This document shows positions 46,072 to 57,268 of a stretch of DNA of 64,000 nucleotides, one piece after another (the first letter of the stretch is position 1; every line of letters begins with the position of its first letter). The stretch is from IMG/VR virus record IMGVR_UViG_3300042560_002469; one strand, written 5' to 3'. The DNA is from an uncultured virus (IMG/VR IMGVR_UViG_3300042560_002469). Taxonomy: Duplodnaviria; Heunggongvirae; Uroviricota; Caudoviricetes. The translations under genes and the position numbers were made by a program. The notes beneath the pieces were generated by a model. It was not told the DNA's origin, ran no database searches, and saw only the letters and a list, made by a program, of their open reading frames with translations.

Positions 46072-46584
46072 ATGGCCAAGGCAAAAAATCCGCTGCCAAC
46101 AGAATACATAAATGAATTTATTGAGCTTCAAGATGGAGGTGTACTTGTTTGGAAAAAATCACCACATCACACTATTCCAACTGGTTCTCACGCGGGAAAC
46201 GATCCTGGTAATGGCTACTTGAGAGTGACGCTTAAAGGCTGTTCGTATGGATATCACCGCATTGTTTATTATCTTGCCTATGGCGTAGACAGTATTGGGT
46301 ACGAGATAGATCATATTAACAGGAATTCCCTTGATAATCGGCCTGAAAATTTGAGGCTGGCGACCGTCTCAGAAAATAAATGGAATACAAAGCGTCGAAA
46401 CAAGACCAATGTTGGGCACAGGGGTATAAGAAAACGTTTCTGGGGACGCAATTATACGTTTGAAGCAAGTTTTCAAGGAAAATACATTGGAAATTTCCCA
46501 ACACTGCAAGAAGCCGTCGAGGCTTGGGAGGTCAGAGCAAGAGAGCACGCAAAAGAATTCTTTTGTCCACCGCTGGAAGAGTGA
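46072..46584 (+). CDS. HNH homing endonuclease
   Basis: 'YHRIVY...IDHINRNSLDNRPENLRLAT..EN..N'. Confidence 0.85.
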   Translation: MAKAKNPLPTEYINEFIELQDGGVLVWKKSPHHTIPTGSHAGNDPGNGYLRVTLKGCSYGYHRIVYYLAYGVDSIGYEIDHINRNSLDNRPENLRLATVSENKWNTKRRNKTNVGHRGIRKRFWGRNYTFEASFQGKYIGNFPTLQEAVEAWEVRAREHAKEFFCPPLEE

Positions 46585-46614: not shown

Positions 46615-48510
46615 ATGCAACGCATTCTTTACTGTGGAGATGTGGGAGTACAGACGGGTTTCGGGCGTGTCGCGGAGTATTTGATTCCTGCTTTGGCAAA
46701 AGATTATGAAGTGCATGCACTTTCGGTGAATCATCATGGCGACCCATCTCCTATGCAGGACTATTGCCGCATGTATCCGGCCATGGCTCACGGCTCCGAT
46801 CCGTTCGGCTCCCATCGCATTGGCGAGCTTTTGCAGATCATCAAACCAGACTTGGTGTGGGTGACGAATGACATTTGGTGCGCCATCAACCTTTGGGAAG
46901 CGGCCAAACCATTTCAAGAAGCTCTGGGTTTCAAGTGGTTCGTCTACACGCCAATCGACAGCTACGGCCTTTTCCCTGAATTACTGCCTGCGCTAGAAGA
47001 ATGGGACGGCATTGCCACTTACACGCGATTCGGAGCAGAAGAAATCCGAAAGATTGGTTACAAAGACAAAATCCGCGTCGTGGGGCATGGCACTGACTTC
47101 TCGAAGTTCTTCCGTCTCGATCAGGCAGAGTGCCGCAAGGAGCTCGGTGTGCCCGAGGATGTTTTCATTGTGTTCAATGGCAACAGAAATCAGCCGCGCA
47201 AGCGCATCGACTTGACGATCAAGGGTTTTATCAAATTTGCCAAGGACAAGCCAGACGCAAGACTATGGCTCAATATGGGCAAAAAAGACATGGGATGGGA
47301 CTTGGTGCCTCTATTCAAGCGCGTGGCACGAGACGAGGGTTACGACGCAACTGGCAAGCTCATTCTTACCAGTCCGCATTTTTCAACCAGCAACTGCCTT
47401 CCCATTGAACAATTGAACAAGGTGTACAACGCCGTCGACATTGGCGTGAACACTTGCATTGGCGAAGGGTGGGGCTTGGTCAATACAGAACATGCCGCCA
47501 CGGGCGTGGCTCAATTGGTTCCAGACCATACAAGCCTTAAGGAAATCTTTCACGGTGTTCCGCGCATTGCTTGTCATGGTTCTGAAACAGACAGGAATTA
47601 TGGACTCGAGAGGCCATTGCCAGAGCCTGATAGCATGGCCGAGCTCTTGACCGGCTATTACAACAATCGTATGGCCCTTAAACAGGCCGGCGATTGGTGT
47701 TATCAGCGCGTACATGAACAAGAGCTCTCATGGTCTTCCATCCAAAAGCAAATGCTGAACATCGTCAAGGAACTGCTTGTCACGGCAAAGAAAAGCGCTG
47801 CTAAGGGCTTTGCAAAAAAGCCTAAGGGCCAGGGGACGACGAGCTTCCCTGGCCAACAAACTCAATGGATTGATTTCAGCGAAGGTAGCAATGTCTTCTG
47901 TATCAGCATTGAAGGAGATGAACGACGCAAGAAGTTTGCCGATCAAATGGGCAAAATTGAACAAAGATTTAATTGGTGGGCGGCGATCGATGGTCGGCAA
48001 CTGTCTCGCAAGGAGCTAGAAGCGCAAAGTTCAATACCAATCGACTGGGAAATTGACGACGACAAAGACACCTTGAAGCGCACTGGCGAGGCAGCACTAA
48101 TACTTTCTTCCATTGCTCTTTGGAAGCATGCCTTTGACCAAGGCATGGATCATCTTGTGATTCTCGAGGACGATACTGAAGTGATGCGACCGCTGGTTCT
48201 TGAAGTGCCAGAAGATGCGGATCTTGTGTTTTTTAATGATCGCAGCATGCGAAACAAGGATGGCCTCACCTGGGGCTATGTATGTGGCACGGATGGTTAC
48301 TTGATTACCAGGCAAGGCTTATCTAAGCTCCTCAAGGTTTTTTCGCGGGCTTACTTGCCACTGGACCTGCAAATGATTGCCAATACAGAAAGCATGCGAG
48401 ATTGCGAACATCATCTATTCGCCTATCGAAAAGAAGATTTGCCCTTGTTAAAAAGCTACACACTCCCTCCCATCGCCTTCCATAACAACTCTCCCTCACG
48501 CATCCGATGA
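46615..48510 (+). CDS. Glycosyltransferase fusion: GT4 (GT-B) plus GT25-like domain
   Basis: 'TGFGRV', 'NRNQPRKRID', 'EGWGLVNTE' (GT4); 'CISI..DERR', 'AIDG', 'ILEDD' (GT25). Confidence 0.85.
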   Translation: MQRILYCGDVGVQTGFGRVAEYLIPALAKDYEVHALSVNHHGDPSPMQDYCRMYPAMAHGSDPFGSHRIGELLQIIKPDLVWVTNDIWCAINLWEAAKPFQEALGFKWFVYTPIDSYGLFPELLPALEEWDGIATYTRFGAEEIRKIGYKDKIRVVGHGTDFSKFFRLDQAECRKELGVPEDVFIVFNGNRNQPRKRIDLTIKGFIKFAKDKPDARLWLNMGKKDMGWDLVPLFKRVARDEGYDATGKLILTSPHFSTSNCLPIEQLNKVYNAVDIGVNTCIGEGWGLVNTEHAATGVAQLVPDHTSLKEIFHGVPRIACHGSETDRNYGLERPLPEPDSMAELLTGYYNNRMALKQAGDWCYQRVHEQELSWSSIQKQMLNIVKELLVTAKKSAAKGFAKKPKGQGTTSFPGQQTQWIDFSEGSNVFCISIEGDERRKKFADQMGKIEQRFNWWAAIDGRQLSRKELEAQSSIPIDWEIDDDKDTLKRTGEAALILSSIALWKHAFDQGMDHLVILEDDTEVMRPLVLEVPEDADLVFFNDRSMRNKDGLTWGYVCGTDGYLITRQGLSKLLKVFSRAYLPLDLQMIANTESMRDCEHHLFAYRKEDLPLLKSYTLPPIAFHNNSPSRIR

Positions 48511-49442
48511 ATCGCCTCAAGAACGTTCAAATTCAAACGCAAGGAGCCTGTAATGCAAATTGCGTTTTTTGTCCTTGGATAGAAAGTTGGCACCATGCCA
48601 ATTACGGCGTCATGGACAGAAAGTTGTTTTCACGCATCTTGGACATGCTGTTGCCATGGAAAGAGAGTATTGAAAATGGCGGCAAGATTTGTCCCTATTT
48701 AATGCAAGAGCCGTTCGTTGACAAGCGCATTTTTGAGCTGTGCGAAGAAATACAGAGCAAGTTTCCAGGGGCCGTCCTTGAGCTTTCAACAAACGGAGCG
48801 TTGCTTTCTAGAGATAAAACCGAGCGCTTGATTCCGTTGCTAGAAGGCAAGCCCCATGAGGTGTGGGTGAGCCACCATGGCGTCGACAAGGCTTCTCATG
48901 AAGAGATTATGAAGATCAATCACGAACGATCCACTTCTCATTTGATCAATTTAATTAAAGAAGCTAAGGGGCGTCTAAACATTCGAATTCGGGGGAGTGG
49001 ATCTTCTCGTACTGGCATTGGGCGTCACTGGTTTTCTCGTCAGGAGTATTTCGAGTATTGGTACAACCTTTCAAAAGAGCATGGGTTTGATCTCTCGTGG
49101 ATTGATCTGGACTATTTCACTTATCACGACAGGGCTGGAACAATCAACAGAGAGGAGCGGGGTGCTGGCGAGAATAACTTTGGAAAGGTTCGCGACATTG
49201 GCTCAGGTTCGCCGTTCCATTGCAGCCGCCTTGATGAATGGCTCCATGTCATGTGGAATGGAGACATTCGATTGTGTTGCATGGACTATCACGCCGAAGT
49301 TAAGCTCCCCAATCTGAACGATATGACGATTGAAGAATACTATCGAGGAAAGGACTTTGAGCGGGTGACGGCGCAAGTAACGGGGCAAATTGAAAGTCCA
49401 GACGATTTCATTTGCAAAAGATGCACAAGTCCAGGCGGCTAA
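48507..49442 (+). CDS. Radical SAM protein with SPASM/twitch domain
   Basis: CNANCVFC; 'EPF'; 'STNG'; 'WNGDIRLCCMD...CKRC'. Confidence 0.88.
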   Translation: MNRLKNVQIQTQGACNANCVFCPWIESWHHANYGVMDRKLFSRILDMLLPWKESIENGGKICPYLMQEPFVDKRIFELCEEIQSKFPGAVLELSTNGALLSRDKTERLIPLLEGKPHEVWVSHHGVDKASHEEIMKINHERSTSHLINLIKEAKGRLNIRIRGSGSSRTGIGRHWFSRQEYFEYWYNLSKEHGFDLSWIDLDYFTYHDRAGTINREERGAGENNFGKVRDIGSGSPFHCSRLDEWLHVMWNGDIRLCCMDYHAEVKLPNLNDMTIEEYYRGKDFERVTAQVTGQIESPDDFICKRCTSPGG

Positions 49443-56069: not shown

Positions 56070-56323
56070 AGATTGATTATTTGCATAGCGCCGACAATTT
56101 GGTTCACGCCATCAATATCAGCATTGATGGTGCCGCAATGGAAGTGGGCATCCTTTGTCTTATTTCCCATAGACAGGCGACCATTAGAATTGCGAACGAC
56201 TACCACTCGTTCCTCGTTGAAATACCTCCTCAGTTTCGCTCTAGTTTTGAGCGAGTGAAAGTGTTCAACGCTCTTCTCAACATTCTCGATCATGAGCAAA
56301 TACAGTTTTCTGCTGGAGACTAA
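56066..56323 (+). CDS. Hypothetical protein
   Basis: ATGA coupling. Confidence 0.5.
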   Translation: MKIDYLHSADNLVHAINISIDGAAMEVGILCLISHRQATIRIANDYHSFLVEIPPQFRSSFERVKVFNALLNILDHEQIQFSAGD

Positions 56324-56840
56324 GGAAGAAGGTTTTTGCGAGCTTCTGCCTGGCTTGCGCCTGAAAAAGTTTGGGGGATGGCTTGTTGCTGAGGCCATTG
56401 AGCAAGAGGAGATCGGCAAGCTTCAAAGCCAGGCGACGATCAAAGCTGTTCAATTGGCAAAAAGAATTGCCACTTCAAAGGGCATCAACTTGGACGAAGC
56501 TTTTGCCCTGCTCCAAGGCGGAGGTGGCACAATCAGCGAGGCAGAGCTTCTCTCCGAATTTACGGAAGAAACCCTGAGCATGCTGACAAGTGGCTCTTCT
56601 GTCGAAGCTACCAACGCGCGAATGGTCACTGCCTTTATTCGCTCTCGCGGACAAGGGTTGATCGATGGGGAATGGCGTGATATTGGAGATTGGAGCACAG
56701 AGGACACCAACGCGCTTCCACGTCGCATTATTGCCAAGGTGGTTGAATTTATCAGCTCTGAGCAGGAATCAGAAATGAAGGAGGCCGGAGAAGCAAAAAA
56801 AGCGTCGAAGAGGAATTCCCCTCCATCGCAGAACAGTTAG
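56292..56840 (+). CDS. Tail assembly chaperone (gpG-like)
   Basis: Upstream of tape measure; slippery A AAA AAA at 56795-56801. Confidence 0.75.
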   Translation: MSKYSFLLETKEEGFCELLPGLRLKKFGGWLVAEAIEQEEIGKLQSQATIKAVQLAKRIATSKGINLDEAFALLQGGGGTISEAELLSEFTEETLSMLTSGSSVEATNARMVTAFIRSRGQGLIDGEWRDIGDWSTEDTNALPRRIIAKVVEFISSEQESEMKEAGEAKKASKRNSPPSQNS

Positions 56841-57268
56841 AAGCCCAGGCCAGAAAGTTTCTGGCCTCAATGACAAATTGGAATGAGCTGTATTTTCGGC
56901 TTGTGTCTTCGGACTTTAGGGATGATCGCTGGAGCTCGCAAAATTTTGGCAGACAAAGACTAAAAGATGTTCAGGCTGCATTGAAATATCTGGAGAAGCA
57001 CGACATAGCGAAGTACAACATTCAAAGCATTGCGACGGCAAAGTTTGGCGCAATGGCGTCCACCATGATGGGCGGCAAGAAGGGTTCGATTAAGGCCGAC
57101 TACTTTTTACCGTTCGACGTTAAGAAGATTCAAAAAGAGGAGAGCGTCACTGGTGAAAGCATGGCCGTACTACAACGATTGATGAAGCAGAGACGAATGG
57201 ATGGAAGGGTGATTGCGCTGCTTGCTGACGAGCTCAAGACATTCAGCAGCCGTAACCAGGACCAATGA
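56801..57268 (+). CDS. Tail assembly chaperone -1 extension (gpT-like)
   Basis: Open from the slippery site (SVEEEFPSIAEQLEAQARKFLAS) into 56870-57268. Confidence 0.7.
   Translation, partial: SVEEEFPSIAEQLEAQARKFLASMTNWNELYFRLVSSDFRDDRWSSQNFGRQRLKDVQAALKYLEKHDIAKYNIQSIATAKFGAMASTMMGGKKGSIKADYFLPFDVKKIQKEESVTGESMAVLQRLMKQRRMDGRVIALLADELKTFSSRNQDQ

Follow-up and report, generated by a model that had tools for sequence, protein, structure and literature searches.

A predicted -1 ribosomal frameshift at the domain boundary of a GT4-GT25 glycosyltransferase gene in an S-CBS4-like cyanosiphovirus

Described -1 frameshifts and the phage glycosyltransferase gene

The tau/gamma gene dnaX of E. coli, for which the slippery heptamer A AAA AAG, a downstream stem-loop and a -1 stop after one codon are reported about two-thirds along the gene (PMC5009743, PMC3711429), is the described system most like the junction presented here. 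Of the contexts reported for E. coli, this heptamer with CC directly behind it shifts most readily (PMC5009743). Chlorobium-type dnaX genes are reported with reversed polarity (PMC5009743, PMC3711429), mostly on runs of 7-10 A (PMC3711429), whereas in the phage genes both polarities occur within one lineage with the same heptamer and hairpin. Because reversal is reported to be possible where the efficiency is near 50% (PMC5009743), the efficiency in the phage genes may be substantial. Unlike dnaX, to which it is unrelated in sequence, the gene encodes a phage glycosyltransferase, and the clade of the window (the whole 64,000-nucleotide stretch of DNA analysed) has no 5' stimulator.

Domain-boundary -1 shifts that give a short and a long product are also described for E. 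coli copA/CopA(Z), Halothiobacillus csoS2 and a chelatase gene with A AAA AAR (PMC5009743, PMC6771820), which in contrast serve cellular metal transport, a carboxysome scaffold and a chelatase and are neither glycosyltransferase nor phage genes. The tail assembly chaperone gpG/gpGT is a phage case with a -1 shift and a shared N-terminus (PMC5009743), but it precedes the tape measure gene and has low efficiency, and the shift described gives the longer product. Tail assembly chaperones make up the overwhelming majority of annotated phage frameshifts, with 2397 chaperones and 79 hypotheticals reported among the SEA-PHAGES annotations (PMC10885494); here the frameshift would lie in the gene of a phage enzyme. 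The available parts of PMC5009743, PMC10885494 and PMC3711429, their predicted-cluster supplements apart, which could bear on this, name no glycosyltransferase case, and the open-access literature, outside which most subscription papers lie, yielded no paper on a glycosyltransferase frameshift or on a same-lineage flip of an unchanged heptamer. The -1 frameshift mechanism is known; new to the searched literature are the class of gene in which it would act and the change of polarity around a constant heptamer within a lineage.

The window comes from a 67-kb virus record found in lake-water metagenomes and is an S-CBS4-like cyanosiphovirus. It shares with Synechococcus phage S-CBS4, the closest cultured phage by the glycosyltransferase protein, the gene order RNR, terminase, portal, GT4, head genes. 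The glycan genes gp014-gp016 of S-CBS4 include the same GT4 (61% identity over the GT4 part) at the same place between the portal and head genes; in this cultured case both the GT25 cassette and the slippery site are absent. The gene in question (Table 1) is surrounded by terminase, portal, HNH, radical SAM/SPASM, DUF2213 and major capsid genes, and the DUF2213 gene occupies the place of the head maturation protease in S-CBS4. We infer a picocyanobacterial host. The genome collection gave 11 loci, all 26-34% identical and none with a clue to the host, and no tRNA genes were found in the window.

An HNH endonuclease gene (46072-46584, +) lies directly 5' of GT4 in the window, and no HNH gene stands at this place among the ORFs of at least 100 aa in L005, L102, L106 and L107. 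Over 46615-46770, the first ~55 GT4 residues are unlike those of the near-identical P0002 while the remainder is almost the same, which suggests a recent recombination at the start of the GT4 gene, adjoining the HNH gene. In L005 an extension brings the radical SAM/SPASM gene to 548 aa, and at its position the other cassette clades have methyltransferases or genes without known identity.

Table 1. Positions of the GT4-GT25 gene, its predicted recoding elements and the following gene in the window
Feature	Position	Strand	Remark
GT4-GT25 gene	46615..48510	+	zero frame 631 aa, ATG at 46615
GT4 (GT-B fold) domain	46615..47790	+	homologue of S-CBS4 gp014 (61%) and chlorovirus B736L
KGF codons	47803..47811	+	counterpart of the KGF(G) C-terminus that most single-domain relatives have
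Slippery heptamer A AAA AAG, in frame	47814..47820	+	Lys401-Lys402
Spacer CCTAAG, 6 nt	47821..47826	+	
-1 frame stop TAA	47823..47825	+	ends predicted 403-aa product
10-bp stem-loop, predicted 3' stimulator	47827..47854	+	
GT25-like (GT-A) domain	47845..48507	+	first codons (FPG) = stem 3' arm
Radical SAM/SPASM gene overlapping GT25 stop	48507..49442	+	variable island in window's clade

The junction signal and its conservation

We consider it highly probable (roughly 0.87) that a programmed -1 ribosomal frameshift gives a 403-aa GT4-only and a 631-aa GT4-GT25 protein from one gene. The initial annotation had proposed such a switch at the linker between the domains, and the elements that it named were found in place: GCA AAA AAG sets the heptamer in phase with the ORF, a 6-nt spacer follows, the stem pairs GGCCAGGGGA (47827-47836) with TTCCCTGGCC (47845-47854) over 10 pairs, one of them G-U, and the -1 frame reads GCC TAA, stopping one codon in and leaving the claimed product lengths. 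The hairpin folds at -18.6 kcal/mol (z -4.36, equalled by 0 of 200 shuffles). In a mechanically chosen and incomplete set of 56 long window ORFs, 40 Lys-Lys pairs lie in frame and three are written A AAA AAG, with a strong hairpin at one of these three (-20.0 here vs -9.7 and -6.4). None of 1500 random coding 40-mers reached -20, and one of 400 synonymous recodings matched the window hairpin. Contigs from four of four other lake runs compared carry 0 indels and 0 substitutions across 47695-47879. Rfam gave no match over 47500-48200 at E up to 1.

The signal falls where the two domains meet. The GT25 half matches PF01755 (E 6e-14, 52.8 bits vs a cut-off of 24) and, weakly at the profile level, COLGALT1 and GT25 structures (E 0.003-0.03). 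The GT4 half matches PF00534 at E 3.5e-4 and 20.6 bits, under the Pfam cut-off of 26.4, and aligns over residues 7-386 with the chlorovirus GT-B protein B736L (E 7e-15); the EGWGLVNTE stretch of the GT4 half fits the EX7E motif. An AlphaFold model from a 5-row alignment (pLDDT 46) was taken as no more than consistent with a last helix to ~392 and strands from ~419. Most of the best 80 viral loci have the GT4 part alone and end at ~404-410 aa, usually six residues after KGFG, so that the predicted short product, ending AKGFAKKA, would stop at the same place; the expectation that single-domain homologues end near this point was thus borne out. Across the lineage (L009-L198) the GT4 C-termini are mostly KGF(G) plus a few residues and otherwise basic tails such as KRKIKEA, and such tails may serve in docking or targeting.

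The loci for a census of the junction came from scans in which the full-length protein, its GT25 half, a divergent GT4 and DNA patterns served as queries. The census is a sample, two of the scans giving the best 80 matches each, and after identical 160-nt junctions were merged and those cut by contig ends dropped it held 130 distinct GT4 junctions; L100, whose contig begins late in GT4, and L124, which ends 41 codons into GT25, were placed by hand, and the P0004 and P0006 junctions were compared as protein only. An in-frame A AAA AAG is present in 23 of 24 GT25-bearing junctions and in 0 of 106 without GT25; these counts overstate independence because the loci are related. Codon use would lead one to expect ~0.05 heptamers per locus. 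Of the 30 Lys-Lys pairs in the GT25-less tails, not one is spelled A AAA AAG; GFGKK in two of them is written GGA AAG AAA and GGC AAG AAG, and L176 has A AAA AAA with the hairpin absent. The sole GT25-bearing exception, L008, has lost 7 nt just upstream, which shifts its heptamer out of frame. This deletion, between short direct repeats (L008:2440-2460), leaves GT25 in the -1 frame and is either a mutation or an assembly error.

Several other candidates were set aside. L241, at first an exception to the census rule, is on the same contig as L124, and P0041, a partial GT4-GT25 record of 321 aa whose junction residues are scrambled, likely contains a sequence error and was left out. The pattern scan returned 48 stretches in total, and its matches outside GT4/GT25 fold at -13.6 or weaker and were taken as chance. 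A frameshift was also considered and rejected for single-domain GT4 genes that have ~240 open -1 codons behind them; none has the heptamer, and in those inspected the downstream gene has its own start.

Hairpins of -15.1 kcal/mol or lower in a 40-nt window occur at 22 of the 23 junctions, as against 1.8% of random coding 40-mers; the outlier is L141, at only -9.8 and with 36 of 400 recodings equally stable. When codons were resampled for an unchanged protein, no more than 10 of 400 recodings equalled the native hairpin at 12 of 14 loci, while L103 is marginal (43 of 400). In an alignment of 12 junctions, three of which pair in a shifted register and from which the L101/L104 group was omitted for a register shift, 89% of cells are paired, compared with 37-66% in slid controls, and three of the 10 pairs are altered on both sides. 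The covariation score lies above 500 of 500 shuffles and every slid control; on the pair-level measure, 25 of 500 shuffles did as well as the real alignment. Between the L101 and L104 stems four of 12 pairs differ and pairing is kept in all four. The predicted spacers of the relatives are mostly 4-8 nt, and the predicted, covarying structure of the window, at 6 nt, lies within the 5-9 nt range of dnaX-type frameshifts. Part of the stem is constrained by the protein, since F-P(-G), encoded by the 3' arm, is also kept in an FkbM-GT25 fusion without Lys-Lys, and the RNA-level evidence therefore rests on the 5' arm and on third positions. The signal is under purifying selection beyond the needs of the protein.

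The likeness to dnaX proposed by the initial annotation held for the heptamer, the stem and the early -1 stop and failed for the upstream Shine-Dalgarno-like stimulator, which is missing in the window's clade. The distance reported for 5' elements of -1 shifts is 9-14 nt (PMC5009743), and 12 of the 20 loci inspected have such an element: in 11 of them it is GGAG, always ending 10 nt ahead of the heptamer, and in one it is AGGAG, 13 nt ahead. The clade of the window has none at 9-14 nt, only a weak AAGG at 7 nt, and its frameshift efficiency may for this reason be low. The gene csoS2 is reported to lack a Shine-Dalgarno-like stimulator too (PMC5009743). Because the bases of the GGAG region also encode Gly-Glu or Gly-Asp, the evidence for GGAG as a 5' stimulator is suggestive only.

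The lack in this clade of the GGAG seen in most others, together with the decayed hairpin of L141 and the disrupted site of L008, is also what would be expected if the signal of the window were vestigial, i.e., if its gene had been fused by a small indel, with the signal not yet decayed, and made almost only the 631-aa protein while the split relatives shift. We regard this as improbable. Fused genes with a GT25 domain only 45-56% identical to that of the window retain the heptamer, the hairpin and the early -1 stop, as the initial annotation had expected of fusions. Synonymous positions are more conserved in the signal than in the rest of the gene (L004, 9/9 vs 318/525; L005, 8/9 vs 252/467; L032, 5/7 vs 170/337), and an A-U to G-C change in the L032 stem alters an amino acid.

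One heptamer in two polarities

The 23 junctions that bear the signal comprise 12 fused in frame with a -1 stop and 11 that are split. In the fused genes the -1 stop comes after one codon in nine, four codons in one and six in two, and where the window has TAA, the stop in L005, L032, L100 and L113 is TGA. In the split ones the zero frame of GT4 stops 0, 1 or 3 codons past the heptamer, and all 10 complete loci, from two clades, have 228-230 open -1 codons through GT25. A conserved start codon ahead of the first GT25 strands was looked for in the split loci and none is common to them; candidate own starts are an ATG 36 codons upstream in L107/L115 and a GTG 4 codons upstream in L104/L105, and their close relatives L106 and L114 lack these starts. 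In these 11 distinct split relatives GT25 can be reached only by a -1 shift, which is stronger evidence than the two checks suggested by the initial annotation. Fused or split, a gene of this kind is predicted to give the same pair of products, and in this it resembles dnaX. The natural controls are unusually clean: the signal goes with a single domain, and the lineage contains both polarities. This argues for selection on the short and the long product alike.

Without recoding, Lys-Lys and F-P-G would be kept for the protein, the hairpin would be an RNA pause or stability element, and the split relatives would be ordinary coupled genes or broken genes. Such an account, which we judge very improbable, would draw on the protein-level conservation of FPG, on the translational coupling of other island genes, which have their own ATG, and on the split GT25 ORFs of 164-224 aa given by gene callers. 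Most of the called ORFs, however, begin inside the domain at codons that differ between loci. With a frameshift, the database entries for split GT25 genes would likely have wrong starts. The control Lys-Lys pairs never use A AAA AAG, the split GT25 frame is intact in every complete locus, and the hairpin, which has no U tract, was not called in a terminator scan. Slippage of RNA polymerase on the A run is the least credible source of both products: one added A in the mRNA would make the same frame change, as on the Thermus dnaX route (PMC5009743), but the run has six A, where such slippage is reported for more than seven and typically nine (PMC3711429, PMC5009743), and the fixed codon phase, the terminal G and the hairpin 4-8 nt downstream in most loci would go unexplained.

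The relationships among the genes point to mobility of the junction. On the GT25 tree the fused/split label takes two changes across the 5-95% range of 200 bootstrap trees, and the starred branches force just one. A quick GT4 tree, built from 80 of 129 sequences after thinning and with L162 wrongly labelled as cassette-less, places the cassette genes on several distinct GT4 backgrounds, the window's clade nested among single-domain genes. The L032-type fusion clusters at 90% with 407-aa single-domain proteins. This distribution fits recombination near the GF tail, and we infer that the heptamer, the hairpin and GT25 move together as one cassette, which is joined to different GT4s there. The same GT25 is also found behind an FkbM methyltransferase in P0006 and P0036 (463 aa), with a linker without Lys-Lys, and nests among the split-type GT25s. 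A similar methyltransferase is a separate gene following GT4 in L138.

Predicted mechanism and role of the two products

In the proposed mechanism, by analogy with dnaX, a ribosome halted by the hairpin would have lysine tRNAs on both codons of AAA AAG, and after a -1 slip the two would pair anew with AAA AAA; a host whose only lysine tRNA reads AAG poorly would suit a dnaX-type shift. After shifting, the ribosome would read Ala and stop in the window, and in the split relatives it would enter GT25. The short form might keep the ordinary GT4 of the lineage with its KGF-like end, and in a fixed share of the molecules a second transferase might be tethered to it, acting on a glycan made by the phage. 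Both forms could be needed for a mixed oligomer, as in tau/gamma, or for the partial addition of a second sugar.

Downstream of GT4, different relatives have DXD-type or GT2 transferases or methyltransferases, and the island would appear to build a phage glycan. The acceptor would most likely be the virion, because of the position among head genes, the mycobacteriophage precedent (PMC11256854) and the multi-domain enzymes of chloroviruses; the alternatives are the host surface or DNA. The chlorovirus protein B736L has the nearest solved structure to the GT4 half, its own function being described only as putative (PMC9614988), and truncation of the multi-domain chlorovirus enzyme A064R is reported to alter the capsid glycan; unlike the predicted recoding here, the A064R variants arise by mutation (PMC9614988). 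A mobile recoding cassette on the GT4 tail, with its polarity flipped at least twice, that tunes a second sugar on the virion coat is a tentative reading, to which we give rather less than even odds. If it were true, there would be phage particles with a translationally tuned, mixed glycan. The junction offers a handle on how phages might tune their glycan coat, and among its relatives the -1 signals differ by degrees in strength, some having a 5' stimulator and others none, a natural series for studying recoding in picocyanobacteria.

The window contains a further candidate site in the gene that precedes the tape-measure-like gene (56292-57268, +), where neither ORF has a Pfam match. GCA AAA AAA G is found near the end of this gene (heptamer 56795-56801), and with the -1 frame open to 57268 it is a candidate for the G/GT frameshift of a tail assembly chaperone.
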